Shown: in pieces, positions 21,851 through 60,718 of the stretch
Layout: each line of letters starts with the position of its first letter
Position numbering within the stretch: the first letter of the stretch is position 1
Origin: a virus
IMG/VR virus record: IMGVR_UViG_3300027733_000039
Location: 1 to 64,000 of that record
Strand: one strand, 5' to 3'
DNA: 64,000 bases
Notes under the pieces: model-generated
Databases searched by the model: none
What the model was told of the DNA's origin: nothing
The model's input: only the letters and a program-made list of their open reading frames with translations
Position numbers and translations under genes: made by a program

Positions 21851-22911
21851 GGATCGGGGTTGCCAGTGGTGACTTCCTGTCCGCTCAGAAGTCCGCAGAT
21901 GGTGAACACCATTGGGGAGGTTCGGGCTGGGCACGGTATGGTCAGTACATCGGGCGCATTGACTACGAAGTAGTTGTCGGTGTACTCACATGGAAGACCG
22001 ATCACTTCTTTATCAGAGACGAACACGACAACTTGGTAGATGTTGATTGGGTCTTTATGCAACGCTTAATGCATGAGAATCTTCCCGAGCACATTCTTAA
22101 GGCACGTCAATATGGGCAGGTCATTGTGAATGATCTAGACGATTGGTACTGGGGTCTTGACCCATCCAATGACGCATTTATCTCTTCTCACCCAAAGTCC
22201 AACCCCAAAGAGAATCGTAATCATTATAAAGCCGTGCTTGCTTCTAGTACAGCCGTGACCGTGTCTACTCCCTACCTTGCTGATCGCATCAAGTCATGGG
22301 TTCGTTGTCCAATAGTTATATTGGAGAATACGGTGGAAGTCAATCGCTTTACTCCACATATTCACACGGATAGTTCTGTACCTGTAGTCGGGTGGGTTGG
22401 TGCCACGAGCCATCGCTCAGGAGACCTAGAGATCCTAAAAGGTGTTGTGAACCCGCTCATTGTTTCAGGTGACATCAAGTTTCAACATAGCGGTCACTAC
22501 GCTCACGCAAATACTGTTGCCAGCAAGTTGGGGTTACATGATGATCAGGTGAGTGTCCTGCCAGCCGTTGATGCTGTTCAGTACCCATTACTGCTCAACA
22601 TGGATGTCGGTGTTGCACCATTGCGGGACACGCCATTTAACCACGCTAAGAGCGACATCAAACTTCTTGAGTACTCTGCCTCGGGCATTCCATGGATTGC
22701 TTCCTCGTTGTCGGCGTACGAGGGGTTGCGTAAAAAGTGGGGGATTGGTAGGACTGCGAGTAAACCTCAGCAGTGGCTCAAGCATCTAGCGGATCTTCGT
22801 GACCCTGCTAGGCGAGCGTATGAAGGTGAAGCCTTAAGAGAAGCGGTGTGGGCACGAGACATTGAACTCGGCACACACCGCCTCAACTCATTTATTGAAA
22901 GTATCCTTTAG
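21847..22911 (+). CDS. GT-B (GT4-like) glycosyltransferase
   Basis: DLDD, VSTPYL, VGWVG..SH..DL, APL...FN.AKS.IKLLEY...GIP.IAS. Confidence 0.88.
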   Translation: MRIGVASGDFLSAQKSADGEHHWGGSGWARYGQYIGRIDYEVVVGVLTWKTDHFFIRDEHDNLVDVDWVFMQRLMHENLPEHILKARQYGQVIVNDLDDWYWGLDPSNDAFISSHPKSNPKENRNHYKAVLASSTAVTVSTPYLADRIKSWVRCPIVILENTVEVNRFTPHIHTDSSVPVVGWVGATSHRSGDLEILKGVVNPLIVSGDIKFQHSGHYAHANTVASKLGLHDDQVSVLPAVDAVQYPLLLNMDVGVAPLRDTPFNHAKSDIKLLEYSASGIPWIASSLSAYEGLRKKWGIGRTASKPQQWLKHLADLRDPARRAYEGEALREAVWARDIELGTHRLNSFIESIL

Positions 22912-23241
22912 TTTCGTTCGTTGCTCAGTGGTCATGGATGTCATGCTCTTGCCACCCCATATTCCATACTGGATGTCGTTCTTGATGGCAAAACGAAGGC
23001 ACTGGATCTGCACAGGACAGCCTTTGCATATCTCTTTGGCTTGCTTCTGTGCTTCTATGACAGTCTTAGTCCTGCGTTCGTAAAGCCCAGCAAACCATTT
23101 GTCGGTGCCTTCTTTACGACAGAGAGCGAACTCTCTCCAGTCACCTACTTCAGGGAACTTCAACCCAAGAGTGTCTGAACGCCACCAAGAGTCAGGCAAG
23201 GTGTTAGTGGGGGATTGCTCCCCCACTGCTACCTCGGACAT
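22888..23241 (-). CDS. whiB: WhiB-family transcription factor
   Basis: WREFALC, AKEICKGCPVQIQCL, GIWGG. Confidence 0.9.
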   Translation of the reverse strand: MSEVAVGEQSPTNTLPDSWWRSDTLGLKFPEVGDWREFALCRKEGTDKWFAGLYERRTKTVIEAQKQAKEICKGCPVQIQCLRFAIKNDIQYGIWGGKSMTSMTTEQRTKLKDTFNK

Positions 23242-25811: not shown

Positions 25812-25813
25812 TT

Positions 25814-25933
25814 GAACCTCCTCAGATTCTTTAACTCAGGGGTGTGACACAGTGTCTTCACCCCGTGGATGCTCTACCCCGATCAGTGAGCAGAGCATCC
25901 ACGGGATGACACCAGCCGAGGCTGATGGCACCC
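25814..25933 (-). ncRNA. Cassette leader L1: type-A structured element (divergent) + SD hairpin
   Basis: Minus strand: P1 CATCAGC/GCTGGTG, long P2 CCCGTGGATGCTCTGCTC/GGGTAGAGCATCCACGGG, P3 GACA/TGTC; GAATCT-GAGG-AGGTTC. Confidence 0.7.
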
Positions 25934-25956
25934 TATTACTGGCTCGTACAAGCCTC

Positions 25957-27098: not shown

Positions 27099-27102
27099 AA
27101 CT

Positions 27103-27217
27103 GACCTCCTCAGGTCTTAGGGATTAATTAATGTATCGGGCATTGAGTGCCCTCACAACCCACAAACAATGTCTGTGGGCTGTGAGCGCACCATGGCGTG
27201 AGCCATGATGCACCCGA
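27103..27217 (-). ncRNA. Cassette leader L2: type-A element + SD hairpin
   Basis: P1 GCATCATGGC-TCAC-GCCATGGTGC; P2 CTCACAGCCCACAGAC/GTTTGTGGGTTGTGAG; P3 GGGCA/TGCCC; GACCT-GAGG-AGGTC. Confidence 0.8.
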
Positions 27218-28446: not shown

Positions 28447-28449
28447 GGC

Positions 28450-28553
28450 GCCTCCTCAGGCATTACTTAATTGAACATCGGATGATGTTCTGACAATACA
28501 TTATCGGTGTGACAATGTACTGTCAGAACACCACGGACTTGCGCCCGTGATGC
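28450..28553 (-). ncRNA. Cassette leader L3: type-A element + SD hairpin
   Basis: P1 GCATCACGGGC-GCAA-GTCCGTGGTGT; P2 TCTGACAGTACATTGTC/GATAATGTATTGTCAGA; P3 GAACATC/GATGTTC; GCCT-GAGG-AGGC. Confidence 0.8.
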
Positions 28554-28556
28554 ACT

Positions 28557-28638
28557 GATGGTGTACCTCCATGAGGACAGAGGCACCCCGATAGTCGCTA
28601 CTGGCGCCGACCATGATGGCGCCGAGCGCCAATGATCA
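28557..28638 (-). ncRNA. Reduced type-B element plus a relic SD hairpin with no ORF
   Basis: TGATCAT-TGGCGC...GCGCCA-GTAG-CGA(CTA)TCG, then GTCCTCATGGAGGTACACCATC. Confidence 0.55.
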
Positions 28639-30165: not shown

Positions 30166-30170
30166 GGTTA

Positions 30171-30262
30171 TACCTCCTCAGGTAATTGTTATGGACTTGC
30201 GTCCTCACAGCACACGAGCATACCCGTGTACTGTGAGCACGCCACACCGTGAGGTGTGACGC
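30171..30262 (-). ncRNA. Cassette leader L4: type-A element + SD hairpin
   Basis: P1 GCGTCACACC-TCAC-GGTGTGGCGT; P2 CTCACAGTACACGGG/CTCGTGTGCTGTGAG; P3 GGAC-GCAA-GTCC; TACCT-GAGG-AGGTA. Confidence 0.8.
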
Positions 30263-30269
30263 CCTCGGG

Positions 30270-30995: not shown

Positions 30996-30999
30996 GGTG

Positions 31000-31112
31000 A
31001 GAACCTCCTCAGATTCTGTTTTGTATGTGTAGGTGGACTTGCGTCCTCGTGATGCATCAGTTGGGGGAACCGATGTACCACGAGCACGCCACGACTCACG
31101 CCGTGACTGCCC
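31000..31112 (-). ncRNA. Cassette leader L5: type-A element + SD hairpin
   Basis: P1 GTCACGGC-GTGA-GTCGTGGC; P2 CTCGTGGTACATCGGTT/AACTGATGCATCACGAG; P3 GGAC-GCAA-GTCC; AGAATCT-GAGG-AGGTTCT. Confidence 0.8.
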
Positions 31113-31124
31113 ATTGCTGATTAC

Positions 31125-31379: not shown

Positions 31380-31382
31380 GGT

Positions 31383-31483
31383 GCCTCCTCAGGCTTTGTT
31401 AGTTGGGCACATTGTATGCCCTCACAATGCACGAGCCAACGCCCATGCACTGTGAGGACACCACGAGTTCACACTCGTGATGC
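31383..31483 (-). ncRNA. Cassette leader L6: type-A element + SD hairpin
   Basis: P1 GCATCACGAGT-GTGA-ACTCGTGGTGT (the loop contains the upstream stop codon); P2 CTCACAGTGCATGGGC/GCTCGTGCATTGTGAG; P3 GGGCAT/GTGCCC; GCCT-GAGG-AGGC. Confidence 0.8.
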
Positions 31484-32631: not shown

Positions 32632-32635
32632 GGTT

Positions 32636-32736
32636 ATACCTCCTCAGGTATCTAGATTGGGCAAATGCCCACACTGATCACCGACTCACGCCGATGAACA
32701 CTGTGGGCACCACGAGATCGCTCCCGTGATGCTCCC
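32636..32736 (-). ncRNA. Cassette leader L7: type-A element + SD hairpin
   Basis: P1 GCATCACGGGA-GCGA-TCTCGTGGTGC; P2 CCACAGTGTTCATCGGC-GTGA-GTCGGTGATCAGTGTGG; P3 GGGCA/TGCCC; ATACCT-GAGG-AGGTAT. Confidence 0.8.
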
Positions 32737-32752
32737 GACTACCAGTCGCTGT

Positions 32753-33070
32753 TTACTCGCTGTCCTCCTCGTCCTCTTCCGAGTATCCCTCGGGCATTGA
32801 GATCGTAGGGAAGTACACGATGACCGAGTCACGACCCATGCTGTCCGAGCGCACACATCGGAGCAAGATCGTCCCGAGAGTTTGTGCGTTCGCATCAGCC
32901 AATTCAAGACCGAGAATCAAGAATGTTGAAGCCTCGTCCTCGGTCACAATGCCGAAGCACTGGTCTCCGTACATCGCACGACCCGAGTACTGCATGACAG
33001 TGCCCGCTTCGTGTTGATCCAGTATCTCGGTGATCAATTCAAGATCATCTACTGTTAGTTGATATGCCAT
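32753..33070 (-). CDS. Hypothetical protein
   Basis: YSGRAMYGDQCFG...DSMG...IVYFP; single-gene cassette. Confidence 0.75.
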   Translation of the reverse strand: MAYQLTVDDLELITEILDQHEAGTVMQYSGRAMYGDQCFGIVTEDEASTFLILGLELADANAQTLGTILLRCVRSDSMGRDSVIVYFPTISMPEGYSEEDEEDSE

Positions 33071-33073
33071 GGT

Positions 33074-33180
33074 GACCTCCTCAGGTCTGTTACTTGATTG
33101 GGCGAAATGCCCTCACGATGCACCGATCACTTGACCGATGCACCGTGAGGACATCACGAGGTTGCCCCCGTGATGCTCCC
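33074..33180 (-). ncRNA. Cassette leader L8: type-A element + SD hairpin
   Basis: P1 GCATCACGGGG-GCAA-CCTCGTGATGT; P2 CTCACGGTGCATCGGTC/GATCGGTGCATCGTGAG; P3 GGGC/GCCC; GACCT-GAGG-AGGTC. Confidence 0.8.
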
Positions 33181-33182
33181 GA

Positions 33183-33401: not shown

Positions 33402-33913
33402 GATGCACTCACCTTGAACTTGGCAACGATCGCCTCAAGTAGAGGCTCACCCTGTCGGGCAGTTGCCATGTCCACACCGAGCAGTGCCGAGACTTGCTCT
33501 ACGAGCGAGTCGTAGTGCGCATCTCGGTCACGCTCTTCGGTGAACGATTCCATCATGCGAATCTGCTCCTCTTCAAGGAACTCATTGAGCGACATCGTGG
33601 TGTAAACACCAGCGATGTCCTGCGGACGCAGTCGGTAGTTGAGACCACTGTTCACCTTCATTGATGGAAGGCGCTCAGGAATGATGTCACCGTTGTACTG
33701 CAATCCTTGTTGACGCCCACGATCTCTTGTGATCGTGCGACCTTTCAACTTGGTGACTTTGCGGGTCTTCGTAGATGAAGTCCTCCACGAGGTGCCCACC
33801 TCCACTTGCTCTTCAAGCACTTCGTCAATGATGAAGTACCCATTGAACTTGGCGCTCATGAAGACCGCTTCGGGACTGACACTCAGAATTGCTCTGATTT
33901 CATTTGCTTTCAT
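33398..33913 (-). CDS. Hypothetical protein
   Basis: Follows leader L9. Confidence 0.7.
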   Translation of the reverse strand: MKANEIRAILSVSPEAVFMSAKFNGYFIIDEVLEEQVEVGTSWRTSSTKTRKVTKLKGRTITRDRGRQQGLQYNGDIIPERLPSMKVNSGLNYRLRPQDIAGVYTTMSLNEFLEEEQIRMMESFTEERDRDAHYDSLVEQVSALLGVDMATARQGEPLLEAIVAKFKVSAS

Positions 33914-33917
33914 GGTT

Positions 33918-34011
33918 GACCTCCTCAGGTCTTATCGTCACGACACGGGATGTGTCGCTAGTCCCCAGTGCTCATTGAAGAGCCACGCCCTAGGCGCTGG
34001 GGGAATGATCA
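33918..34011 (-). ncRNA. Cassette leader L9: type-B (tRNA-elbow-like) element + SD hairpin
   Basis: TGATCAT-TCCCCCAG-CGCC(TAG)GGCG-TG-GCTC(TTCAAT)GAGC-A-CTGGGGA-CTAG-CGACAC(ATCCC)GTGTCG; GACCT-GAGG-AGGTC. Confidence 0.8.
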
Positions 34012-34527
34012 GCCGTATGTGACCTCACCGAGCAGGATGAACTGCACGATGGCATCAGCCACGATGGCGTCACAATCGCACTCAAACTCGTCAATGGCAT
34101 TCTCACCGAACAGGTAGCACCCTGCTAGAGCGCTCACTCGCTTGACTGGTAGTTGACCGTAGTCAGGCACGCTGTCCTGATTGAACTCACCCGTGCCGAT
34201 CTTCTCAATGAAGTCAGCAATGATGGACTCACTGATCACGAGTGGCGTGCCGAAGCGGTAGAACCCGCCCCAACCGTTGAAGCCATCGTCATCGGTCAAC
34301 TTCGCCAATTCGGCTTCGTCTTCCACCAATTCACACGCTTCCATGTCGTACAGAGTGACCGATGCGAAGTGTTCGTTGCCGTCCAATTCGCTTTCGCCCA
34401 GTTCCGTGCCCCATGTGTAGGTGCTGTTGGCAACCGCCCACGATGCGATCCCGTAGGAACCGCCCTCGTACGCAGTGCTCAGGATGCTTGCCCCGAGATT
34501 GAGTAGTTGTTGTCTTGTTGCTTTCAT
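34009..34527 (-). CDS. Hypothetical acidic protein
   Basis: TAYEGG...W; DAIVADAIVQ..LLGEVTYG C-terminus. Confidence 0.75.
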   Translation of the reverse strand: MKATRQQLLNLGASILSTAYEGGSYGIASWAVANSTYTWGTELGESELDGNEHFASVTLYDMEACELVEDEAELAKLTDDDGFNGWGGFYRFGTPLVISESIIADFIEKIGTGEFNQDSVPDYGQLPVKRVSALAGCYLFGENAIDEFECDCDAIVADAIVQFILLGEVTYG

Positions 34528-34530
34528 GGT

Positions 34531-34621
34531 GTGCCTCCTCAGGCATATTCACGACACTTGCGTGTCGCTAGTCCCCAGTACCGATTGAACGGTCACGCCT
34601 GAAGCGCTGGGGGATTGATCA
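34531..34621 (-). ncRNA. Cassette leader L10: type-B element + SD hairpin
   Basis: TGATCAA-TCCCCCAG-CGCT(TCA)GGCG-TG-ACCG(TTCAAT)CGGT-A-CTGGGGA-CTAG-CGACAC(GCAA)GTGTCG; ATGCCT-GAGG-AGGCAC. Confidence 0.8.
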
Positions 34622-34626
34622 CGCAC

Positions 34627-34863
34627 TCAGCCGATCGTGAGCAACGCTGACAGGTACGGCAACTTGACGCCCCTGTTGGCAAGTTCGCTTGCGCAGATCT
34701 CTGCGATTGCATCCTTGATGATCTCTGAGCGGGTGTTGAGACCGTCCGATTTCTTCAGAATGTGCAGGAGTTCTGCATCGCTAAGTGCCCGTACATCGGC
34801 GCTGTAGTGAGCGATGTATTGCTCTCGCTTGCGAATGTTTGCGGGTGTGTTCTTGTATGTCAT
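34627..34863 (-). CDS. Hypothetical protein, first gene of the leftward block
   Basis: Follows leader L11. Confidence 0.65.
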   Translation of the reverse strand: MTYKNTPANIRKREQYIAHYSADVRALSDAELLHILKKSDGLNTRSEIIKDAIAEICASELANRGVKLPYLSALLTIG

Positions 34864-34868
34864 GGTGT

Positions 34869-34993
34869 GTCCTCCTCAGGACTGCACTGGCAGTGAGCCA
34901 GTGGAGCGTGGTGCGCTCAATCAGGACTGGAGCGGGGGAGAACCTCCAGCCCTCATTGAGCGCCACGAGCAAGCCGAAGCAAGCCCGTGACGC
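34869..34993 (-). ncRNA. Cassette leader L11: type-A element + SD hairpin
   Basis: P1 GCGTCACGGGC/GCTCGTGGCGC; P2 CTCAATGAGGGCTGGAG/CTCCAGTCCTGATTGAG; P3 GAGCG/CGCTC; extra CACTGGC/GCCAGTG stem; GTCCT-GAGG-AGGAC. Confidence 0.75.
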
Positions 34994-35072
34994 TGAGGAA
35001 TTTATTGAACCATGTTTTGATTCTTCAGTTGTCAGGAGCGCATGAGCGCCAAGCCAAGCAATCGGCAGAACG

Positions 35073-35096
35073 ACAAAGAGCGACCCGAAGGTCGCT
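35073..35096 (-). terminator. UUCG hairpin with a weak U-tract in the leader of the leftward block
   Basis: AGCGACC-TTCG-GGTCGCT-CTTTGT. Confidence 0.45.
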
Positions 35097-35154
35097 TTCC
35101 GTGTGAGCCGATTGTCAAGGAACCTGCGAAGGAAGCGGTACCGCCTTCACAAAT

Positions 35155-48403: not shown

Positions 48404-49188
48404 TGGCTAGAGGTAACGGTGGATTTCTAGGAGCAAAGAAGGTTATCAGTAATTCTGCTGCGTCTGGTTTTTACACTTTTGCTGATGCTCAAAGGGAAAG
48501 AGGAGCAAGTAACTGGCCCACACCGCCTCTTCCTCTTACATATCTAGTTCTTGGTGGAGGTGGTGGTGGTTCTGGTGGAACAAGCAGCGTCAACTATGGT
48601 TCTGGTGGTGCTGGAGGAACCATTCGCACTGGTTCTGCTAATGCTCTCTTTGGAACCCAATACACGATTACTGTTGGTGGTGGGGGTGCTTCTTCTATTA
48701 CAAATGCTTCCTCTGGTGAATCTTCAAGTGCTTTTGGCATTACTGCTACAGGGGGTGGTGGTTCTGGACAAGGCATGACTGGTGGAAGTAACGCCGATTA
48801 CTCAGGTGGTAACGGCGGGTTCTATGGTGGTAGTGGTGCTGGTTCGGGCGGCAACGGAAGTGGTGGGTCTGGCGGTTCTTCTACTGATTCGTCAATTTCT
48901 GGAAGTACGGTTTCCTATGGCGGCGGTGGCGGTTCTCAGTTTGGTAGTAGCGGTGGTGGAGGCGGAGCCATCGTGACGTATGGCTCCTCTGGTGCTGCCA
49001 ACCGAGGCGGTGGCGGTAGTGGTGGTCAAGCCAACGGGTCAAATGGTTCTGGCGGTTCTGGTGTGGTGATTATTCGTTACCTAGACACATTCTCATTAGC
49101 AACATCAACTACTGGTTCACCAACGATAACAACAACAGGTGGCTACAGGATATATACTTTTACTGCATCAGGCAGCATAACCTTCTAA
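48403..49188 (+). CDS. Gly-rich-domain virion protein 1
   Basis: YLVLGGGGGG...GGSGVVIIRY...YTFTASG. Confidence 0.8.
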   Translation: MARGNGGFLGAKKVISNSAASGFYTFADAQRERGASNWPTPPLPLTYLVLGGGGGGSGGTSSVNYGSGGAGGTIRTGSANALFGTQYTITVGGGGASSITNASSGESSSAFGITATGGGGSGQGMTGGSNADYSGGNGGFYGGSGAGSGGNGSGGSGGSSTDSSISGSTVSYGGGGGSQFGSSGGGGGAIVTYGSSGAANRGGGGSGGQANGSNGSGGSGVVIIRYLDTFSLATSTTGSPTITTTGGYRIYTFTASGSITF

Positions 49189-49200
49189 GGAGAAATAAAC

Positions 49201-49569
49201 ATGGCACATTTTGCTGAAATTGGCGAAGACAACATTGTATTGCGAGTCATCGTGGTATCTAATGATGATTGCAAAGATGGCGCAGGAAGCGAATCAGAGG
49301 CTGTAGGCGCTGAATTCTGTCGTAATCTGTTGGGTGGAACGTGGAAGCAGACCTCGTACAACGGCACCATTCGTGCTCGCTATGCAGGTATTGGTTACAA
49401 GTATGATTCCGCTCTAAATGCGTACATCGCCCCTAAACCTTTCCCTTCTTGGACTCTTAACGAAGACACCACTGAATGGGAAGCACCAGTTGCTCGTCCA
49501 GCAGAGGGTATGTACAGTTGGGACGAAGAAGAGCAAGAGTGGGTGGAAATCGTTATTCCTTCGGAATAA
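49201..49569 (+). CDS. Tail-fibre-associated/assembly-like protein
   Basis: MAHFAEI, WKQTSYN, PKPFPSW, Y.WDE...W. Confidence 0.75.
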   Translation: MAHFAEIGEDNIVLRVIVVSNDDCKDGAGSESEAVGAEFCRNLLGGTWKQTSYNGTIRARYAGIGYKYDSALNAYIAPKPFPSWTLNEDTTEWEAPVARPAEGMYSWDEEEQEWVEIVIPSE

Positions 49570-49572
49570 TAG

Positions 49573-50763
49573 ATGTCCCTTACTTTTCCCGCCTCTCCAA
49601 GCGTTGGTGATACCTACACTGTAGGTGCACGTACTTGGACATGGTCAGGAACAATTTGGGAAATCACAGGAACTGTTGCGGCGGCTGGTTCTATTGGAAC
49701 TACTGAACTAGCGGCAAGTGCGGTAACAGCCGCCAAAATTGCCGACAGTACAATAACTTCAGCCAAACTTGCTTCTACTGTCCCTGTAGTTACGGTCTGT
49801 ACTTCGTCAACAAAACCTGCATCACCTTTTACAGGTCAAACGATTTTTGAGACTGATACCAATCTCATGAAAGTCTATATAACAGGTGGTTGGAGCAACG
49901 GTACATCACATTTCCGAAGTCTTTCTGTTGACTATCTTGTTGTCGCAGGTGGCGGAGGCGGCGGTCATGGTTATCCACCTGGCAGTAGCACCGATGGATA
50001 TGGTGGCGGCGGAGGCGGTGGTGGACTACGAAGCACAGTAGCGGCGACTAGCAATAGTGGAACATTAGAAGCAGCATTAGCACTTACGCCTGCAACTTAT
50101 ACAGTTACGGTTGGTGCTGGTGGTGCTGGTGGCAATATCTCCAATGGTTCCAATGGTCAAAACTCAGTATTTTCGTCTATTACAGCAACGGGTGGCGGTG
50201 GTGGCGGTGCAGGTGGAACAGCAGCAAACTCTAGTGTCGGCTTAAACGGCGGTTCGGGTGGCGGTGGCGGTGGTCGTGGCGCAAAGGCTGGTGGAACGGG
50301 AATTAGTGGACAAGGCAATAACGGTGGCGCTTCACTTGCTGGAGATGGTTATTACGGCGGTGGCGGCGGTGGCGGTTCGTCTGCCGCTGGTACAGGTTCT
50401 GTGGCATATGTTGGTGGCGCAGGTGGTAGTGGAACAACAAATTCAATAACTGGTTCTTCTGTTGTTTACGGTGGTGGCGGTGGAGGTTCATCTTTAACTG
50501 GTGGTGCTGCGGGTTCGGGTGGTGGAACAGCAGGCACCAGTGGTATAGGGAACTCAAGTTCTGCTTCAGCAAACACTGGTGGTGGTTCGGGTGGTGGCGG
50601 TGGCGGAACTGGACCAACTGGGGCTGGTGGTTCAGGCGTAGTAATTGTTCGTTACCTAACCGCAGACGCTACTGGTTTAACAATTACAGGCGGAACCGCA
50701 ACAACCTCTGGCTCGTACACAGTTCGTACATTTACTGCATCAGGAAGCCTAGTAATATCTTAG
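49573..50763 (+). CDS. Gly-rich-domain virion protein 2
   Basis: FPASP head, CTSSTKPASPFTGQTIFETDT module, Gly-rich domain. Confidence 0.8.
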   Translation: MSLTFPASPSVGDTYTVGARTWTWSGTIWEITGTVAAAGSIGTTELAASAVTAAKIADSTITSAKLASTVPVVTVCTSSTKPASPFTGQTIFETDTNLMKVYITGGWSNGTSHFRSLSVDYLVVAGGGGGGHGYPPGSSTDGYGGGGGGGGLRSTVAATSNSGTLEAALALTPATYTVTVGAGGAGGNISNGSNGQNSVFSSITATGGGGGGAGGTAANSSVGLNGGSGGGGGGRGAKAGGTGISGQGNNGGASLAGDGYYGGGGGGGSSAAGTGSVAYVGGAGGSGTTNSITGSSVVYGGGGGGSSLTGGAAGSGGGTAGTSGIGNSSSASANTGGGSGGGGGGTGPTGAGGSGVVIVRYLTADATGLTITGGTATTSGSYTVRTFTASGSLVIS

Positions 50764-50764
50764 T

Positions 50765-52144
50765 ATGGCTATAGATTTTCCAAACTCACCAGCCACAAAT
50801 GATTCTTTCACGTCAGGTGGAAAGAAGTGGATCTTTAACGGCACCACTTGGAACCTCATTACTGCTAACTCTTATACTATTCCTACAAGTGAAGTAACAG
50901 CGGCAAAAATTGCTTCTAATGCTGTTACTGAGGTAAAGATTAACGATGGGGCAGTAACCCAAGCCAAACTTGCTTCTGGTCTTTCAGGAATTACGGTTAC
51001 TACTACGGCTAACCGCTCGGCTGTTATCCCGTCACCTTTTGCTGGTCAATTCATTTTCCTCACTGACACAAGCCAACTACAACGATGGGACGGTAGTGCT
51101 TGGGTTGTTGCTATTACTACAGTGCCAACAGGTGCACCTACGTCTGTAGCAGTCTCAGGTTCACCTACATCTAGCACGGTCACACTTACGTTTTCTGCTG
51201 GTGGTGATGGTGGTTCAGCAATCACCAACTACCAATATGCTCTTTCCACGAATGCTGGCTCAACATACGGTTCATACACGGCACTTTCTCCCGCCGATGG
51301 AACTAGTCCGATAACAATTACGGGTCTTGCCCTAGGCACAACTTACTACGTAAAACTTAAAGCAGTAAACGCTTTGGGTGCTGGTACATCAGAATCCTCT
51401 GCTATTTCCTTTACTACGTCAAGCCTTTCTGTTGATTATATTGTCGTTGCGGGTGGAGGTGGTGCTGGCGGAAACCGTGGTGGTGGAGGCGGCGCAGGCG
51501 GAATGTTGGTATACACAAACCAAAGTGCTTCTGTTGGAACCTATGCTTTTGTTGTCGGCGGCGGAGGTGGTGGACAAACATCTGGAGTTGAGTCCGTACA
51601 AGGGCAAAGTTCTTCTGCTTTTGGAAATACCGCTACTGGTGGAGGTAGGGGCGGTGGCAACTTGGGTGGTTCTAGCAATGGCGGTTCAGGCGGTTCGGGT
51701 GGCGGTGGCGGTTCCAATAATGGCGCTACTGGTGGTGCTGGTACGGCTGGTCAGGGCAATAGTGGAGGAAGTTCTGATGGCGGTGGCGGTGGCGGCGGAG
51801 GAAAAACTGGTGCTGGTGCAAATAGCGTTGGTGGTTTAGGTGCTGGCGGTGCTGGTTTGGCTAGTTCAATAACTGGTTCATCTGTCACTTACGCTACTGG
51901 CGGAATAGGCGGTGCTTCTGGAGATAGTTCAAATCCTGCTGTCAATGGTACTGCAAACACTGGCAATGGTGGTGTAGGTGGTGCAGGAAACGTAGCAGGT
52001 GGTGTTGGCGGTTCTGGTGTAGTTATTGTCCGTTATTTAACAGCCGATGGTTCAGGTGCCACTATTACAGGTGGCACTGTTACTACATCAGGTTCCTACA
52101 CAGTCCGTACATTCACAGCATCAGGAAGTTTGGTTATCGCATAA
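50765..52144 (+). CDS. Gly-rich-domain virion protein 3 with an FN3 domain
   Basis: MAIDFPNSP; GAPT...DGGSAITNY...TYYVKLKAVN. Confidence 0.8.
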   Translation: MAIDFPNSPATNDSFTSGGKKWIFNGTTWNLITANSYTIPTSEVTAAKIASNAVTEVKINDGAVTQAKLASGLSGITVTTTANRSAVIPSPFAGQFIFLTDTSQLQRWDGSAWVVAITTVPTGAPTSVAVSGSPTSSTVTLTFSAGGDGGSAITNYQYALSTNAGSTYGSYTALSPADGTSPITITGLALGTTYYVKLKAVNALGAGTSESSAISFTTSSLSVDYIVVAGGGGAGGNRGGGGGAGGMLVYTNQSASVGTYAFVVGGGGGGQTSGVESVQGQSSSAFGNTATGGGRGGGNLGGSSNGGSGGSGGGGGSNNGATGGAGTAGQGNSGGSSDGGGGGGGGKTGAGANSVGGLGAGGAGLASSITGSSVTYATGGIGGASGDSSNPAVNGTANTGNGGVGGAGNVAGGVGGSGVVIVRYLTADGSGATITGGTVTTSGSYTVRTFTASGSLVIA

Positions 52145-52458
52145 TGGCTATAGATTTCCCTAACTCACCATCTAACAACGATCAATACACTGTTGGAGCA
52201 ACAACATGGATGTATAACGGCACAGCATGGGTTATCGTCTTAGGCGAATCCTCAATTGCTACGGGTGCAGTAACTACTGATAAAATTGCTACTAACGCTA
52301 TAACGGCGGCAAAATTGGCAACAGGTGCAACTAATGCTTATGTGTTAACGGCGGATTCCACCACCACAGCAGGCGTTAAATGGGCATTTATTCCACCATC
52401 AGGTGGTTTATCTACCAGCACAGAAGGTGCCATAATGACAATGAGTATTGGAGCGTAA
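52144..52458 (+). CDS. Short fibre-like protein
   Basis: MAIDFPNSP head; VLTADS....GVKW. Confidence 0.7.
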   Translation: MAIDFPNSPSNNDQYTVGATTWMYNGTAWVIVLGESSIATGAVTTDKIATNAITAAKLATGATNAYVLTADSTTTAGVKWAFIPPSGGLSTSTEGAIMTMSIGA

Positions 52459-52459
52459 T

Positions 52460-52795
52460 ATGGCATCAGGCGACAGAGCAGAAGCACGTTTAGGCGGCCC
52501 AACACAGTTAGGTACATCCACCACTACCTTATGCACCGTAACAGCGGGTCATACCTATGTAGTGAAACAGATCATCATTTCTAATACAGATACTGTGGAT
52601 CGTAATGTGACTTTGGCTATTGGTTCGGCGGCTACAGGTGCAAACCAAATCATGTCAGCGCTACCTATTGGCGCAAACGATCTCATGGTATGGGATACCG
52701 CCCTCGTTCTTAACACAACGGAGACATTACAAGGTTTATCAGATACAGCATCTAAAGTTACGGTCACGGTAGTCGGCTGGGATAAGACAAACTAA
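52460..52795 (+). CDS. Small beta-sandwich virion protein
   Basis: VVKQIIISNTD; similar in size and role to 48050. Confidence 0.7.
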   Translation: MASGDRAEARLGGPTQLGTSTTTLCTVTAGHTYVVKQIIISNTDTVDRNVTLAIGSAATGANQIMSALPIGANDLMVWDTALVLNTTETLQGLSDTASKVTVTVVGWDKTN

Positions 52796-52798
52796 TCT

Positions 52799-53746
52799 AT
52801 GGGATTCTCTGAAGGTCTCGGCATTGGCTCGTTGAAGCCTGGGGTGTGCACTAGTACTACACGCCCTGCCGCACCCTATGTTGGTCAAACTATCTTTGAG
52901 ACTGATACAAATAAAATGAAAGTGTATTTATCTACTGGTTGGTCTGACGGTACAACACATAGCCGATCTCTTTTTGTTGAGTATCTAGTTATTGCTGGTG
53001 GTGGAGCGGGTGGTAGTAGTTACGGAGGTGGCGGTGGTGCTGGAGGCTACCGTACGAATGTTGTAGGTGCTACCTCTGGTGGTGGTGCTAGTGCCGAAGC
53101 GGCAATGGGGCTTGTTACTGGTACATATACGGTGACTATTGGTGCTGGTGGAGTAGGTAATGCCACAAGTGGTTCTAATTCGGTTTTTTCTACGATTACA
53201 GCACTTGGTGGTGGTTATGGAGGCCCATCCGAAAATAATGGCTTTACTGGAGGTTCTGGTGGTGGAGCGGGTGGAACAGGGAACAGCGGCACTAAAGACT
53301 CTGGATCGGGCACTGCAAATCAAGGTTTTGCTGGTGGTCAAGAATTCCCACAAGATGGGTATGGTCCTGCTGGCGGTGGAGGTGGCGCAGGCGCTGTTGG
53401 TGGAAATGCTTCTTCCCTTACTGGAGGCACTGGCGGTGTTGGTTTAGCAAGTTCAATCACAGGTACAGCAGTAACTCGTGCTGGTGGCGGCGGCGGTGCA
53501 ACTATCAGTGGAACCCAAGGAAGTGGTGGTTCGGGTGGTGGCGGAGCCGCTGTATGGGGTAGTGGTGTTGCGGGTACAGCCAACACTGGTGGTGGCGGTG
53601 GTGGTTCATTGGGGAGCGGTGGTTCAGGTGTCGTTATTGTTCGCTATTTAACGGCAGATGGTTCTGCAACAGGGGGGACCATTACCACATCAGGTTCTTA
53701 TAGAATCCATACTTTCACAGCCTCTGGTAGTTTGGTAGTTGCATGA
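52799..53746 (+). CDS. Gly-rich-domain virion protein 4
   Basis: KPGVCTSTTRPAAPYVGQTIFETDT + Gly-rich domain. Confidence 0.8.
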   Translation: MGFSEGLGIGSLKPGVCTSTTRPAAPYVGQTIFETDTNKMKVYLSTGWSDGTTHSRSLFVEYLVIAGGGAGGSSYGGGGGAGGYRTNVVGATSGGGASAEAAMGLVTGTYTVTIGAGGVGNATSGSNSVFSTITALGGGYGGPSENNGFTGGSGGGAGGTGNSGTKDSGSGTANQGFAGGQEFPQDGYGPAGGGGGAGAVGGNASSLTGGTGGVGLASSITGTAVTRAGGGGGATISGTQGSGGSGGGGAAVWGSGVAGTANTGGGGGGSLGSGGSGVVIVRYLTADGSATGGTITTSGSYRIHTFTASGSLVVA

Positions 53747-54345
53747 CAATCTCAGCAACTTCTAAAGGGCTAAAGAATGGGGTTTGCACCTCATCTAATC
53801 GCCCAGCGAACCCGTTTGACGGCATGGTCATTTATGAAACGGACACCGACAAGATTGCTGTATATGACTCATCGGCTTGGGTGTATAAAACTGGCACTGC
53901 TGCGCCCGTAACTGGATATAAGTTAAATGTTACAGCCACCGCTGGAACATCCATTAGTGATTCTACAGCAACAACAATTTTAAGTGGCTCAGTAACTGTT
54001 GTCCCAGGACGTGTATACCAAGTCTATGGTTCTTGTGCGGCTCAATCTGGAAGCACAATTACATGGAGAGCGCTATGGATTGCCCAATCTAGTTCTGGTT
54101 TTGTTCGGGGACTCTATCAGTCTCCACATACAACTACCGCCAACCTTCCAATTTCTATGCAAGGAACTACAACTTTCCTTGCATCAGATGTTGGTGTAAC
54201 TACGGGTAGTGGCACTGCACTCACTTTTGATTTACGTATGCGAATGAACGGTGGTATCACTGGACTGAATACGAACCCTGATGGCATTATTGGTGCAAAC
54301 TCTTTTCCACAAGTTTTAACAATCATTGATATAGGAGCAATTTAA
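53743..54345 (+). CDS. Virion protein with a GVCTS..RP module and a distinct C-terminal domain
   Basis: GVCTSSNRPANPFDGMVIYETDT; ends IDIG. Confidence 0.75.
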   Translation: MTISATSKGLKNGVCTSSNRPANPFDGMVIYETDTDKIAVYDSSAWVYKTGTAAPVTGYKLNVTATAGTSISDSTATTILSGSVTVVPGRVYQVYGSCAAQSGSTITWRALWIAQSSSGFVRGLYQSPHTTTANLPISMQGTTTFLASDVGVTTGSGTALTFDLRMRMNGGITGLNTNPDGIIGANSFPQVLTIIDIGAI

Positions 54346-55304
54346 TGCCCCTCTCTTCTGTTATCGGCGCACAATCGTTGATTAAACCTGGTGTCTGCAC
54401 ATCTACAACTCGCCCTGCATCACCTTACACAGGGCAAATGATTTATGAGAGTGATACAAACAAGTTACGTTTGTGGAACGGTACTGCGTGGTCAAATGTG
54501 ACGCACAGTATTGGTTTATCTATTGAGTATCTAGTTATTGCTGGTGGTGGTGGTGGTGGTTGGGACGTTGGTGGTGGCGGTGGCGCAGGCGGTTTCAGAA
54601 CTAACGTAAGTGGTGCTACTTCTGGCGGTGGAGGGCCTTCTGAAGCGGCAATGATTCTTGTTCCAAATACCTACACTGTTACCGTTGGTGCTGGTGGCGC
54701 AACAACAAGCGGACCATCGCCAAGACTTTCATTTAGCGGTAATGATTCTGTGTTTTCTACAATCACTTCGGTGGGCGGTGGAGGTGGCGGAAACTGGATT
54801 GCTTCAGGTAGCAGTGATACAAACAAAAACGGAAAATCTGGTGGCTCTGGTGGCGGAGGTGGTGGTTACCAAATGGTTTCAACTGGTGGCGCTGGTACTA
54901 CGGCACAAGGATACGCTGGTGGAGCGTCATCGGTTAATAGCACAGAAGCAACTGGCGGTGGTGGTGGAGGTGCTGGAAGCGTAGGTGCTGTTGGAATTTC
55001 TAGTGGCAGTGGTTTTGCCGCTGGCGGTACAGGTTTAGCATCAAGCATTACAGGAACCTCTGTCACTTACGCTACTGGCGGTAAAGGCGGAGGAGATAGT
55101 TGGACTGGGGGTGTTATTGGAGCCAGCAATACTGGTAACGGCGGGGATGGTCAAGGCTCTTCTGCCAACACTACGGGTGGTTCGGGAATAGTTATTATCC
55201 GCTACCTGATTGGCGCTGGGTCGGCAACAGGCGGAACTATTACAACTTCTGGTGTATATACAGTTCACACGTTTACATCCTCAGGAAATTTGGTTATCAC
55301 ATAA
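54345..55304 (+). CDS. Gly-rich-domain virion protein 5
   Basis: KPGVCTSTTRPASPYTGQMIYESDT + Gly-rich domain. Confidence 0.8.
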   Translation: MPLSSVIGAQSLIKPGVCTSTTRPASPYTGQMIYESDTNKLRLWNGTAWSNVTHSIGLSIEYLVIAGGGGGGWDVGGGGGAGGFRTNVSGATSGGGGPSEAAMILVPNTYTVTVGAGGATTSGPSPRLSFSGNDSVFSTITSVGGGGGGNWIASGSSDTNKNGKSGGSGGGGGGYQMVSTGGAGTTAQGYAGGASSVNSTEATGGGGGGAGSVGAVGISSGSGFAAGGTGLASSITGTSVTYATGGKGGGDSWTGGVIGASNTGNGGDGQGSSANTTGGSGIVIIRYLIGAGSATGGTITTSGVYTVHTFTSSGNLVIT

Positions 55305-55483
55305 TGCCTGCACCAATTGATTTCCCTAACTCTCCATCTTCTGGAGATGAATACGTAGCAGGCGGTATGGTTTGGCGCTATCTTAATGGTGTTTGGAAGC
55401 GCTTCCCACAAACTGTTTCTGATAGCGGTTTTTCTGATACACCTCTCAACGCTTATTTTGTAGATGATGGTGGAGGCGCATAA
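55304..55483 (+). CDS. Stand-alone IDFPNSP module (59 aa, not in the ORF track)
   Basis: MPAPIDFPNSP...W.Y..GVW...DGGGA*; TAATG coupling at both ends. Confidence 0.65.
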   Translation: MPAPIDFPNSPSSGDEYVAGGMVWRYLNGVWKRFPQTVSDSGFSDTPLNAYFVDDGGGA

Positions 55484-56268
55484 TGGCATATCGCCGCATT
55501 CTTATTCGCCGTGACACGGCTGCGAACTGGACAGCGAACAACCCAACGCTTGCCGCTGGTGAGTTTGGACATGAGACCGATACAGGCAAACTTAAACTTG
55601 GTACAGGCGCAATAGCGTGGAACAGTTTGGGTTACCAAAATAATGTTACTTCTGTAAACGGTTCTACGGGTGCAGTAACGGGTCTTGCCCCAACTGCTAG
55701 CCCAACCTTCACAGGCACTGTCTCTGGTGTCACTAAAGGGATGGTCGGACTTGGCAATGTGGATAACACAAGTGACGCAAATAAACCAGTATCCACTGCA
55801 CAGCAAACCGCTCTTGATCTTAAATCAAACCTTGCTTCCCCAACTTTCACGGGCACTGTAGTTTTACCTAACTCTACAGTCACGGCTACGATGATTGCAT
55901 CAGATGCTGTAACGCAAGCAAAGATCGCTGACAGGGCTGTTGGTTCTGCCGAACTTACAAACTTAACTTTAAATGCCCAAACTGGAACTACATACACCTT
56001 GGCGCTTACGGATGCACAAAAATTAGTCACATTAAATAATGCGTCTGCAATTTCTTTAACCGTGCCTACAAATGCAACTGCTGCTTTTACTATTGGTGAT
56101 CAAGTTAACTTATTGCAGTTAGGTGCTGGGCAGGTAACAGTGTCTGGCGCTGGCGTTACTTTCCGTTCTGAAGGCTCAAAACTTAAATTAAAAGCCCAAT
56201 ACGCAATAGCCACTCTTATCAAAGTTGGAACAGATGAATGGGTTGTTGTCGGAAACTTGGCGGCGTAA
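55483..56268 (+). CDS. Fibre protein with an Mtd N-terminal-like domain
   Basis: RRDTAANWT.NNPTLA.GE.G.ETDTGKLKLG; VGLGNVDNTSD.NKPVS. Confidence 0.8.
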   Translation: MAYRRILIRRDTAANWTANNPTLAAGEFGHETDTGKLKLGTGAIAWNSLGYQNNVTSVNGSTGAVTGLAPTASPTFTGTVSGVTKGMVGLGNVDNTSDANKPVSTAQQTALDLKSNLASPTFTGTVVLPNSTVTATMIASDAVTQAKIADRAVGSAELTNLTLNAQTGTTYTLALTDAQKLVTLNNASAISLTVPTNATAAFTIGDQVNLLQLGAGQVTVSGAGVTFRSEGSKLKLKAQYAIATLIKVGTDEWVVVGNLAA

Positions 56269-57029
56269 TGCAAGTATTAGCAAATGTTGCTGCAAGTGCA
56301 TTTGAATCCACAGGTGGAACAATAACCGCCTACTCAACGTACCGTGTGCATTCTTTTACGGCGTCTGGAACTTTTACAATATCTGAAACAAAGACTGTGG
56401 ACATGCTCGTAATCGGCGCAGGTGGAGGTCGTGGGGGTCAAGACGGTGGAAATAACTATGGAAGCGGTGGAGGCGGTGCGGGAGCGATGAACGAGGTAAC
56501 CTCCTACTCGTTGGCGGCAGGAACATACGCCGTAACAGTTGGCGGTGGCGGCAACGGCTCACTATCAGACGGAAGTCCCAGCAGTTTTGGTTCTTTGTAC
56601 TCAGCGCAAGGTGGTGGTGGAGGTGGTTATCCTAACGGTTTTGCATCCACAGGCGGCAGAACTGGTGGTTCGGGTGGTGGCGGAGGAAGCCGTGGCGGTG
56701 GTGGAACTGACCCTGGTGGTGGCGCTTCTGGCCCAAACACCAATGTTGGCGGTTATGGTGTCCATAGCCCAGGACAGTACCACGCAGGCGGTGGCGGAGG
56801 TGGAGCAGGTGGCGCAGGCAGTGACGCAGGACAAACAGGTGGTGCTGGTCGTGCAAACTCTATTCGCACTGGTTCTTCAGTTACTTACTGTGTTGGTGGT
56901 TATGGAAAGTACAATAATAGTGATGGTGGTCCAGATCCAGCAGCAAATAGCGGAAGTGGCGCATCTGGAACAGCAGCACCAAGCCGTGGTGCGGATGGTA
57001 TTGTAGTTATACGTTTAATCCCAACGTGA
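56268..57029 (+). CDS. Gly-rich-domain virion protein 6 (permuted)
   Basis: TGG...YRVHSFTASG at the N-terminus; GIVVIR at the C-terminus. Confidence 0.8.
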   Translation: MQVLANVAASAFESTGGTITAYSTYRVHSFTASGTFTISETKTVDMLVIGAGGGRGGQDGGNNYGSGGGGAGAMNEVTSYSLAAGTYAVTVGGGGNGSLSDGSPSSFGSLYSAQGGGGGGYPNGFASTGGRTGGSGGGGGSRGGGGTDPGGGASGPNTNVGGYGVHSPGQYHAGGGGGGAGGAGSDAGQTGGAGRANSIRTGSSVTYCVGGYGKYNNSDGGPDPAANSGSGASGTAAPSRGADGIVVIRLIPT

Positions 57030-57048
57030 CCCTAATTGGAGATGACCA

Positions 57049-57573
57049 ATGACAACTAGACGAATACTGATTCGTAGGGACACGGCGGCGGCTTGGACTG
57101 CGGCTAACCCTACCCTTGCGTCTGGCGAACTGGGCGGAGAAACCGATACAGGAAAACTCAAACTTGGAAATGGCTCAACCGCATGGAACAGCCTCGCCTA
57201 CCAAGGTGGCGTTACCTCAGTTAACGGCAATACGGGTGTAGTGACTGGTCTTGCTCCGACTGCTAGCCCAACTTTCACTGGAACAGTTGTTTTGCCCGCA
57301 ACAACATCTATTGGAACAATCACCAATACTGAGTTGTCGTATGTAGACGGAGTCACTTCTGCTATCCAAACTCAATTAGATACCAAAGCCCCTACAAGCA
57401 ATGCTTCATTTACGGGAACTTTTAGCGCCCCAGCAGGAACCATTACTAGCACTATGCTTGCTGATGGTACTATCGTCAACGCAGACATTGATGCTTCGGC
57501 TGCTATTGCAACAACAAAAATCACTGGCTGGGAAAATGACCAAGTTGTTTTGAACAACAGAATATTTAATTAG
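57049..57573 (+). CDS. Fibre protein with an Mtd N-terminal-like domain, paralog of 55483
   Basis: RRILIRRDTAAAWTAANPTLASGE. Confidence 0.8.
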   Translation: MTTRRILIRRDTAAAWTAANPTLASGELGGETDTGKLKLGNGSTAWNSLAYQGGVTSVNGNTGVVTGLAPTASPTFTGTVVLPATTSIGTITNTELSYVDGVTSAIQTQLDTKAPTSNASFTGTFSAPAGTITSTMLADGTIVNADIDASAAIATTKITGWENDQVVLNNRIFN

Positions 57574-57581
57574 GAGACATC

Positions 57582-57941
57582 ATGGCAACATTTAGCAAAA
57601 CAATTCTTAGCGGTTCAACAGATGGTAAAGGTGTTCTTGTAGCGGCAACTGCTACAGCAGGAACATTGGTTCATACTGGTTCTGCAACTGCGGCAACCTT
57701 GCATGAGGTTTGGCTGTATGCAGTTAACACTTCGGCTTCAGATGTTAAGTTGACAATTGAATGGGGCGAGGCTACTGCACCTAACGGTAATATTGAGTAC
57801 ACGGTTAAGGCTGAAAACGGTTTGTATCTAATCGTTCCAGGTCTACTGCTGAAAGGCAATGCGTCAGCACTTACAGTAAAGGCTTTTGCCGCAACAACAA
57901 ACGTAATCGTTGTTCACGGATACGTCAACGTAATCGCCTAG
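57582..57941 (+). CDS. Small virion protein, paralog of 60360
   Basis: LSGSTDGK, EVWLYA.N, KLTIEWG, GYVN.I. Confidence 0.75.
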   Translation: MATFSKTILSGSTDGKGVLVAATATAGTLVHTGSATAATLHEVWLYAVNTSASDVKLTIEWGEATAPNGNIEYTVKAENGLYLIVPGLLLKGNASALTVKAFAATTNVIVVHGYVNVIA

Positions 57942-57952
57942 GTCTTAAATAC

Positions 57953-58894
57953 ATGGGCCTAATTAATAACTTTATGAGCGGTGGACGCTCTATTTCTGCT
58001 GGGTCACTAAATCCACGAGCCAATCGTGGTTCCACAAATCAGGCTGATGGGTATTGGCGTGGTGGTCTTTCTGGTTTTGCCGCAGTGGGAGCAACTGGTA
58101 GTTATGCATTGTCAACACTAGGTGGTTTCAAGTATTTGACCTTCACGGCTGGTGGAACAATGAACGTCACCGATGGTGGGACTGCTGATGTCTTGGTGGT
58201 AGCGGGAGGTGCCGCTGGAGGATATGGTGGCGCAGGCGGTGGTGGTGGTGGCGGTGTGCGAGTTTCTGCTGGAACAATTTTGACAACACTTACTTTTAAT
58301 TCTGGAGTAAGCACAATAACAATTGGTAACGGTGGCAGTTCTGGGGCAGACGGTTCATCGGGTTATGGCGGCAGTGGAGGCACATCAAGCATTACACATG
58401 CTGCGGGGACTTTCTCAGCAACGGGTGGCGGTGGAGGCGGTACTGGTGGTGCTAGTTCTGGTGGTTCTGGTGGCGGTGGAATAGGTTCCTATGGATCAGG
58501 AAACGCTGGTGGATATACACCAGCGGAAGGAAAAAATGGTAGCGGAAGCGGTGCTGCTGGCGTCGGTGGTGGTGGAGGTTGGTCAGCCGCTGGTGATGGC
58601 TCAATGGGTTACGGAGGAGAAGGTCTTGCTGTGAATACAGCCGACTCAAACCTTTCAACTGTCATTGGCTACTCGGTTGTTGGTTCTGGTGGCGGTGGTG
58701 CAGGAAACTGTAACAACGGTGGTTCAGGAAACATTTATGGTGGTACTGGTGGGGGTAAAGGCTCATACGGAAATGATGCACAAAACGCAACTAGTTACGG
58801 TTCTGGTGGCGGCGGTGGCGGAAACTGTTTTGGTTCCCTATATCACGGTGGTGCTGGCAGGTCTGGAATTATTGTGATCAGGTGGGCGGCATGA
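57953..58894 (+). CDS. Gly-rich-domain virion protein 7 (permuted)
   Basis: KYLTFT, VLVVAGG, SGIIVIRW. Confidence 0.8.
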   Translation: MGLINNFMSGGRSISAGSLNPRANRGSTNQADGYWRGGLSGFAAVGATGSYALSTLGGFKYLTFTAGGTMNVTDGGTADVLVVAGGAAGGYGGAGGGGGGGVRVSAGTILTTLTFNSGVSTITIGNGGSSGADGSSGYGGSGGTSSITHAAGTFSATGGGGGGTGGASSGGSGGGGIGSYGSGNAGGYTPAEGKNGSGSGAAGVGGGGGWSAAGDGSMGYGGEGLAVNTADSNLSTVIGYSVVGSGGGGAGNCNNGGSGNIYGGTGGGKGSYGNDAQNATSYGSGGGGGGNCFGSLYHGGAGRSGIIVIRWAA

Positions 58895-59166
58895 AAAATG
58901 TTGCAATAATGGATGGAAATGTTGTTGTCAATGTTACATTGTGTGGTGATGACTATGTTTTATCTGAAAACGAAATAGAATACTTTGATGACAAACCTGC
59001 TTTCATAAATGGAGATTATGTTGACGGCTATTTTTATGGTGTTCAACCATTTCCTTCTTGGACAAGGTATGAGGGTGTTTGGATACCGCCAGTTCCCCGA
59101 CCAGAGACAAGGGACAATTGGTATTGGGATGAAGAGAAACGAGAGTTTTCTATATACAACGGATAG
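58891..59166 (+). CDS. Tail-fibre-associated protein related to 49201
   Basis: QPFPSW...W.PPVPRP...W.WDE. Confidence 0.7.
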   Translation: MKNVAIMDGNVVVNVTLCGDDYVLSENEIEYFDDKPAFINGDYVDGYFYGVQPFPSWTRYEGVWIPPVPRPETRDNWYWDEEKREFSIYNG

Positions 59167-59175
59167 GTTTGTTCG

Positions 59176-60716: not shown

Positions 60717-60718
60717 CT

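Follow-up and report, generated by a model that had tools for sequence, protein, structure and literature searches.

A 40-nt three-way-junction RNA with a T-loop-like tip in the small-gene operon spacers of uncultured, probably actinobacterial, phages

Genomic context

The window, a stretch of 64,000 nt, is part of a 97,131-bp IMG/VR virus record (IMGVR_UViG_3300027733_000039). The phage is a myovirus, carrying sheath, tube, baseplate, portal and terminase genes, as well as genes for a primase, a family A DNA polymerase, RecA and SNF2 helicases. It also encodes a WhiB-family transcription factor (Table 1); because such proteins are known only from Actinobacteria and the phages that infect them, its host is probably actinobacterial. 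Elsewhere in the window lies a long run of glycine-rich, internally repetitive genes with GGX-type repeats and several paralogous blocks, which accounts for most of what a repeat scan detects and is probably a tail-fibre array.

Genes between 23.2 and 34.9 kb are encoded on the minus strand, and two spacers of about 95 nt within a co-directional operon of small genes each harbor a full copy of the motif on that same strand. The neighboring genes are small and of unassigned function, and include DUF2786 and DUF6011 genes. A consensus scan for sigma-70-type promoters and intrinsic terminators identified no promoter- or terminator-like site in either spacer (33914-34008 and 34528-34626), and Pfam searches of 30 larger open reading frames (ORFs) identified no phage RNA polymerase, which together place the element inside a polycistron transcribed by the host. 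DNA-hairpin promoters of the N4 type were also considered and rejected, there being no RNA polymerase among the large ORFs scanned, the largest of which (892 aa) encodes a lysin-like protein. Tandem gene duplication was rejected as the origin of the repeat, since the genes on either side are not paralogous and the 171-aa protein bears no relation to the 172-aa one.

Table 1. Coordinates of the two junction copies and of other features discussed in the text (window positions unless a contig is named).
Feature	Position	Strand	Description
WhiB-family transcription factor gene	22888-23241	-	Pfam PF02467, E 5e-17
Copy 1 core	33963-34002	-	exact pattern match; covariance model R1, 82.7 bits; MFE fold gives the same junction
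Copy 1 P1	34002-33997 pairs with 33968-33963	-
Copy 1 P2	33996-33993 pairs with 33989-33986	-	loop UAG
Copy 1 J2/3	33985-33984	-	UG
Copy 1 P3	33983-33980 pairs with 33973-33970	-	loop UUCAAU, 33979-33974
Copy 1 J3/1	33969	-	A
Copy 1 tail and P4	33941-33962	-	single-stranded ACUAG, 33962-33958; CGACAC-AUCCC-GUGUCG, 33957-33941
Copy 1 linker and SD	33911-33940	-	A-rich linker; GACC-UGAGGA-GGUC, 33931-33918
Copy 1 downstream start	33913-33911	-	ATG of 171-aa gene
Copy 1 5' side	34003-34011	-	UGA of 172-aa gene, 34011-34009; 6-nt gap to P1
Copy 2 core	34573-34612	-	exact pattern match; covariance model R1, 82.6 bits; MFE fold
Copy 2 P1	34612-34607 pairs with 34578-34573	-
Copy 2 P2	34606-34603 pairs with 34599-34596	-	U-G pair; loop UCA
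Copy 2 UG	34595-34594	-
Copy 2 P3	34593-34590 pairs with 34583-34580	-	loop UUCAAU, 34589-34584
Copy 2 A junction	34579	-
Copy 2 tail and P4	34552-34572	-	ACUAG; CGACAC-GCAA-GUGUCG
Copy 2 linker and SD	34525-34551	-	linker; GCC-UGAGGA-GGC, 34544-34533
Copy 2 downstream start	34527-34525	-	ATG of 172-aa gene
Copy 2 5' side	34613-34629	-	UGA of 78-aa gene, 34629-34627; 14-nt gap to P1
Claimed third copy	28589-28638	-	non-member; single imperfect hairpin 3' of helicase stop codon
Type A spacers	33071-33182, 32632-32752, 31380-31468, 30996-31124	-
Type A spacers, continued	30166-30269, 28447-28635, 27099-27217, 25812-25956	-
105-aa gene	32753-33070
Operon leader	34864-35100	-	before first gene
Glycine-rich gene run	48500-62000
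MTRKDY...NPRFDR gene	L109:5613-5798, L114:14359-14529, L059:4732-4941, L033:3419-3616, others
Sister variant	L033:3624-3698, L023:10448-10521, L117:1107-1177		same spacer position
GC-rich three-armed fold	L154:1307-1380, L103:4118-4191, L120:2837-2910, L151:1229-1302		one metagenome lineage

Structure of the two copies

Each copy is centered on a 40-nt core that folds into a three-way junction, in which a 6-bp helix (P1) encloses two 4-bp hairpins (P2 and P3); the unpaired parts are the UUCAAU loop of P3, a UG and a single A at the junction, and an AC tail 3' of P1. This junction is the minimum free energy (MFE) fold of each copy. The shared part can be written as CCCCAGCGC-N4-GGCGTG-N4-TTCAAT-N4-ACTGGGGACTAGCGACAC, which matches at 33952-34002 and 34562-34612 with no mismatches; as a 51-nt pattern it has exactly two exact matches, and none in 100 shuffles. 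P1 is the same in both copies (CCCCAG/CUGGGG), P2 is CGCC-UAG-GGCG in copy 1 and CGCU-UCA-GGCG, with a U-G pair, in copy 2, and P3 is GCUC/GAGC in copy 1 and ACCG/CGGU in copy 2, such that three of its four pairs have changed on both sides. An initial annotation of this DNA had described two full copies with these stems and compensatory change in the arm that carries the UUCAAU loop, and on both points it is borne out by the exact pattern matches on the minus strand, the folds and the sequences of the copies.

Downstream of P1, both copies continue with ACUAG and a second hairpin, CGACAC/GUGUCG (P4), followed by an A-rich linker, a Shine-Dalgarno (SD) hairpin of the form (GA)CC-UGAGGA-GG(UC) and the ATG of the next gene. 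An intrinsic terminator was rejected, as neither helix leads into a U tract: ACUAG comes after P1, and UGA-rich or A-rich sequence after P4.

The SD sequence lies inside a small hairpin (NNCC-UGAGGA-GGNN) both in the two copies and at most related loci. Its outer pairs covary (GACC/GGUC, GCC/GGC, UACC/GGUA, CUCC/GGAG), so that a conserved structure presents, or in part masks, the ribosome-binding site.

Related copies and their distribution

A covariance model (R1), built from 34 related copies, identified only these two sites in the whole genome. With all filters off, it returned no other match above 5 bits between 24 and 36 kb, which excludes from the family a stretch that had been listed as a third copy (Table 1); this stretch gave no model match at E ≤ 10 with filters off, and the sole sequence that it shares with the P4 flank is AGUAGCGAC. 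The operon leader, which is conserved and has an MFE of -110 kcal/mol over 237 nt, was considered as a weak family member, since R1 scores it at 8.8-10.8 bits in relatives, and was rejected: it folds as long hairpins with no junction.

Related contigs were collected by a pattern scan and a protein-anchored scan of IMG/VR, and the covariance-model search for further homologs that had been proposed for the motif recovered the same junction in related phages. Five related IMG/VR records contain 2, 4, 7, 8 and 6 copies, in each record on one strand and in one cluster; copy number in related IMG/VR phages ranges from 2 to 8 or more per genome, with eight consecutive copies in L006/L008. Further lineages with the junction came from a less stringent scan of JGI metagenomes; they differ in their P1 helices (GCCCCGC, UUCCCGGA and others) and ribosome-binding sites (AAGACAGGAG, AAAGGGGAA), and in which the GC content of the matched element ranges from 39 to 76%. 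Together, all sources yielded about 80-100 distinct sequences. Another three-armed fold, GC-rich and found in one metagenome lineage (CCCCCCG...CGGGGGG, with arms UAGGU/ACCUA and GGCCGAUUAAAUCGGGC), lies on the opposite strand, ∼250-330 nt from the junction.

A pattern scan of bacterial genomes gave two matches in metagenome-assembled genomes, neither of which was recovered by the model at E ≤ 0.01, and identified no prophage or host copy among the genomes scanned. BLAST searches of cultured phages with the element and with a 1.7-kb region returned nothing similar, and in literature searches the motif was undescribed. Rfam 15 yielded no family match at the gathering threshold, with ribozyme and riboswitch models included, and no tRNA (RF00005) or tmRNA (RF00023) hit at E ≤ 10 for the two copies or at E ≤ 1 for 10 diverse loci. 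A riboswitch was rejected on the grounds that the junction is too small for a pocket, has no Rfam match and lacks a switching helix.

The wider family also redefines what is conserved. The initial annotation had proposed TGATCA, STAG and CGA/TCG as the minimal core, and had expected homologs to retain the first two together with the T-loop; the loop is conserved in homologs, and TGATCA and STAG mostly are not. Of 102 distinct family members, 8 have TGATCA upstream, 19 carry the TAG tail and 16 the CGACAC hairpin, which makes these features local and leaves the junction as the conserved part. In the window, TGATCAWT occurs at chance frequency (7 observed vs. 5.8 expected), and the TGA of 'TGATCAT' at copy 1 is the stop codon of the upstream 172-aa gene.

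Covariation and functional strand

We aligned 81 distinct cores with MAFFT, without fitting them to the structure. In this alignment 95.9% of cells are paired vs. 72% in shuffles, both partners have changed at 10 of the 14 pairs, and covariation scores 0.55 vs. 0.14 in shuffles; P3 pairing was imposed by the extraction filter on the first 34 sequences, in which P1 and P2 were unfiltered, and later sets were drawn from model and pattern matches. The covariation signal collapses when partners are slid by 1-3 columns, and RNAalifold independently returns the three-way junction. The 81 junctions contain 21 variants of P1, 14 of P2 and 27 of P3, all of them compensated, on helices of 6-8 bp (P1), 4 bp (P2) and 4 or 3 bp (P3).

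Set on these variable stems are about a dozen invariant unpaired nucleotides. The P3 loop is UUCAAU in 68/81 and UUCGAU in 13/81, with no other variants among covariance-model matches carrying the UG junction, and the P2 loop is variable. The UG is present in 79/81, an A (AA or GA where P3 has 3 bp) precedes the 3' strand of P1, and AC directly follows P1 in 73/81. The 81 junctions contain 58 G-U pairs. Read from the opposite strand, these pairs would become A-C mismatches; they fit only the sense strand and so identify it as the functional one. Within a contig, all copies have the same orientation as the genes, and a ribosome-binding site and an ORF come after each of them. The element is thus a genuine, selected, sense-strand RNA structure.

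In a sister variant at the same spacer position (Table 1), UA or UU replaces UG, and a loop of the GUCAUA/GUCGUA type replaces UUCRAU; this joint change of junction and loop hints at a contact between the two. Pairing of UUCRAU in cis with the flanks or the SD sequence was rejected, as no conserved complementary segment is apparent by eye across lineages, and pairing of the 5' strand of P1 with the SD sequence does not survive the covariation of P1.

Position and exchange of gene cassettes

Behind unrelated genes and all three stop codons, P1 mostly starts after a gap of 6-13 nt, 7 nt being the commonest length; P1 lies 27-36 nt from GAGGAGG and 38-50 nt from the ATG. Lineages that differ in ribosome-binding site and GC content keep the order of parts. 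Several hairpins alternate at the place of P4 across the family, and in some lineages P4 is reduced to a GCGAAAGC mini-hairpin or is absent, which leaves the junction alone as the conserved unit. Directly 3' of the junction, several divergent lineages encode a protein family of ∼60 aa (MTRKDY...DNPRFDRxRF..ACG); as it is absent from this genome, it was rejected as an obligate partner.

When cassettes were compared in pairs, the upstream gene alone was homologous in 15-27 pairs and the downstream gene alone in 9-25. Similarity begins at the first base of P1, or ends just past the tail or in P4. As read from these breakpoints, the junction is a shared linker, and the downstream gene brings P4 and the SD hairpin along with it.

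Almost all remaining spacers of the operon contain a different set of very stable hairpins (type A, as opposed to the type B junction), with a 15-20 bp stem resembling an RNase III substrate, each followed by the same CCUGAGGAGG ribosome-binding hairpin. One of these type A elements precedes a 105-aa gene in the window, and a type B junction precedes its ortholog in L010 (87% identical). The two folds are therefore interchangeable at this position; since each precedes an orthologous gene, two different folds may be doing the same job.

Such mosaicism raises the possibility that the element acts mainly as DNA, as a recombination linker or a selfish intergenic repeat whose RNA fold has no function. 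It does coincide with mosaic junctions, its core is the segment shared at breakpoints, and related contigs often break at it. We nonetheless regard this explanation as very unlikely, given the compensatory changes in all three helices, the sense-only G-U pairs, the invariance of the P3 loop vs. the variable P2 loop and the fixed orientation relative to genes, features that show selection on a single-stranded fold.

Possible functions of the junction

We favor, tentatively, a cis-acting module that marks intercistronic boundaries of the mRNA for processing, stability or insulation and is recognized by its tip. Action in cis on the mRNA is suggested by the fixed place between cistrons and by replacement with another stable fold, and recognition of a defined shape by the invariance of loop and junction on freely covarying stems. 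The module would be built into the spacers of small-gene (early-type) operons of freshwater actinobacterial myoviruses. The junction folds ∼7 nt past the stop codon, ahead of a small hairpin, an A-rich linker and the SD hairpin, and its T-loop-like, UUCRAU-capped form would be recognized as a shape, whether this depends on its own tertiary structure or on a factor supplied by host or phage. Such recognition would define a boundary for processing or stability at the invariant, unpaired A and C just 3' of P1. Were the RNA cut between these two nucleotides, the upstream cistron would end in the junction, as a 3'-terminal block to exonucleases, and the downstream one would begin with P4 as a protective 5' end; the ribosome-binding module of each gene would also be insulated from its neighbor. 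As the junction is common to every cassette, it would double as homology for cassette exchange between phages.

Actinobacterial RNase E would be the most plausible enzyme for such a cut, with a tRNA 3'-end enzyme acting after the discriminator-like A as an alternative; the C that follows this A resembles C74, which disfavors RNase Z. Preference for RNase E stems from the fit of the unpaired AC to an enzyme that cuts 5' of C: purified mycobacterial RNase E cuts immediately 5' of cytidines, and its mapped sites are enriched intergenically (PMC10641625). A strict tRNA-ruler enzyme such as RNase P is disfavored by the variation between lineages in the combined length of P1 and P3. Instead of being cleaved, the AC tail might make a tertiary contact. 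Neither the invariant loop nor the invariant junction would be needed simply to block exonucleases, so this account lacks a specific partner or activity, and we found no co-varying phage protein partner.

An invariant loop on freely covarying stems is also the classic signature of a protein-recognized hairpin, and the element might thus be an operator for a trans-acting RNA-binding protein of phage or host that co-regulates all cassettes, with effects such as timed shut-off or activation of early translation or decay, by analogy with T4 RegA, coat-protein hairpins or boxB/N. The many copies per operon, and conservation across lineages with differing ribosome-binding sites, fit such a role. We consider it unlikely, as no candidate protein co-occurs (the neighbors are unrelated genes of unknown function), the junction lies 27-36 nt upstream of the SD sequence with a hairpin between, making direct occlusion unlikely, and the presence of type A elements at an orthologous site would require a second operator system.

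The location of the element exactly at cistron boundaries makes the 'punctuation' proposed in the initial annotation a reasonable hypothesis. In its literal form, the junction would be a tRNA-elbow mimic, cut by host RNase P and/or RNase Z. Several features recall a tRNA: UUCRA(U) fits the pentanucleotide pattern of T-loops and varies only at position 4, between A and G, as tRNA T-loops also may, the P3 hairpin is joined to the closing helix beside its 3' strand, much as a T arm adjoins an acceptor stem, the second short arm occupies the position of the D arm, and a discriminator-like A follows P1. Yet the first pairs of P1 are C-G, which is uncommon in acceptor stems, and the combined length of P1 and P3, about 10 to 12 stacked pairs, is not constant. 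T-loops contain a non-Watson-Crick pair between positions 1 and 5, with an intercalating base filling the stacking gap between positions 4 and 5, and RNase P and the T-box recognize T-loops and the tRNA elbow (PMC4919913). In contrast to the T arm, which has a 7-nt loop, a 5-bp stem and a conserved closing pair of the G53-C61 type, P3 has a 6-nt loop, a 4-bp stem and a variable closing pair; the anticodon arm of tRNA and CCA are absent, as had been noted for the two copies, there being no fourth arm and a tail of AC(U/A/G), and so is the long helix of tmRNA. The element also differs from tRNA, tmRNA and YrlA tRNA-like domains in sitting inside mRNA in many copies. ARAGORN detected no tRNA in the window, as had been expected, and the Rfam tRNA and tmRNA models were negative even at E ≤ 10, so that the likeness holds for the loop pattern and fails in whole-molecule models. 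We therefore judge cleavage as an elbow mimic to be quite improbable. A decoy for anticodon nucleases, also suggested for the motif, has nothing in its favor, as the anticodon arm is absent.

Cleavage might instead be intrinsic, the junction being a new, very small self-cleaving ribozyme that, with its insulating hairpin, would resolve the operon into monocistronic units as a natural counterpart of RiboJ, a synthetic insulator with a hammerhead-type ribozyme core. Like RiboJ, the element is a compact three-way-junction RNA followed by a hairpin and a ribosome-binding site; the clustering of its invariant unpaired nucleotides on 40 nt and its presence at every boundary in some phages, as in the runs of eight, would suit this role. 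In contrast to RiboJ, it has no hammerhead-type core, and no Rfam 15 model of a known ribozyme (hammerhead, twister, twister-sister, pistol, hatchet, HDV-like) matched at the gathering threshold or at E ≤ 10. With only 3-4 unpaired junction nucleotides, which offer little for an active site, and with type A hairpins substituting for the junction, self-cleavage appears very unlikely. That phages of freshwater actinobacteria cut their early polycistron into messages the size of single genes with a dedicated 40-nt device of either sort, be it a T-loop mini-elbow recruiting host tRNA enzymes or a minimal ribozyme class, is unlikely. The mini-elbow version, if true, would be a bacterial-virus analogue of mitochondrial tRNA punctuation without any tRNA.

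Should the junction be a processing or recognition signal, it would define how early expression is organized in abundant uncultured actinophages, and would provide a portable 40-nt part for insulating or cutting genes in Actinobacteria. Recruitment of tRNA enzymes, or self-cleavage, would represent a new mechanism or a new ribozyme class. The junction also marks the seams of gene-cassette swapping between these phages.

Comparison with known systems

Structured elements between phage early genes are known, including the RNase III sites of T7 and the PeSLs of T4; the element described here stands apart from them as a very compact fold that ends in a tRNA-like tip. It is under clear selection and is present in several uncultured freshwater phage lineages. 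In phage T7, the RNase III processing sites between early genes are long irregular duplex hairpins, and processing leaves stabilizing hairpins at the ends. Both systems place a structured RNA in each intercistronic gap of an early polycistron, but T7 sites contain about two helical turns of near-continuous duplex, and the helices of the junction, 14 bp in all, fall short of the length that RNase III needs; the T7 sites have a closer likeness in the type A elements of the window.

T4-type phages have PeSL cassettes, each made up of an early promoter and a terminator-like stem-loop (PMC2839356, PMC4122927). There, too, conserved intergenic modules flank small, variable early genes and cassettes are shuffled, whereas here promoter- and terminator-like signals are absent and the conserved part is a junction RNA. 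In Cluster K mycobacteriophages, start-associated and extended start-associated sequences (SAS/ESAS) are repeated before many genes and include the ribosome-binding site (PMC3203893). They are likewise actinophage repeats with conserved inverted repeats upstream, but are short motifs with simple inverted repeats, for which no three-way junction or invariant loop has been described. The junction is thus a new, uncatalogued RNA family of a generally known kind, the structured intercistronic elements of phage early operons.
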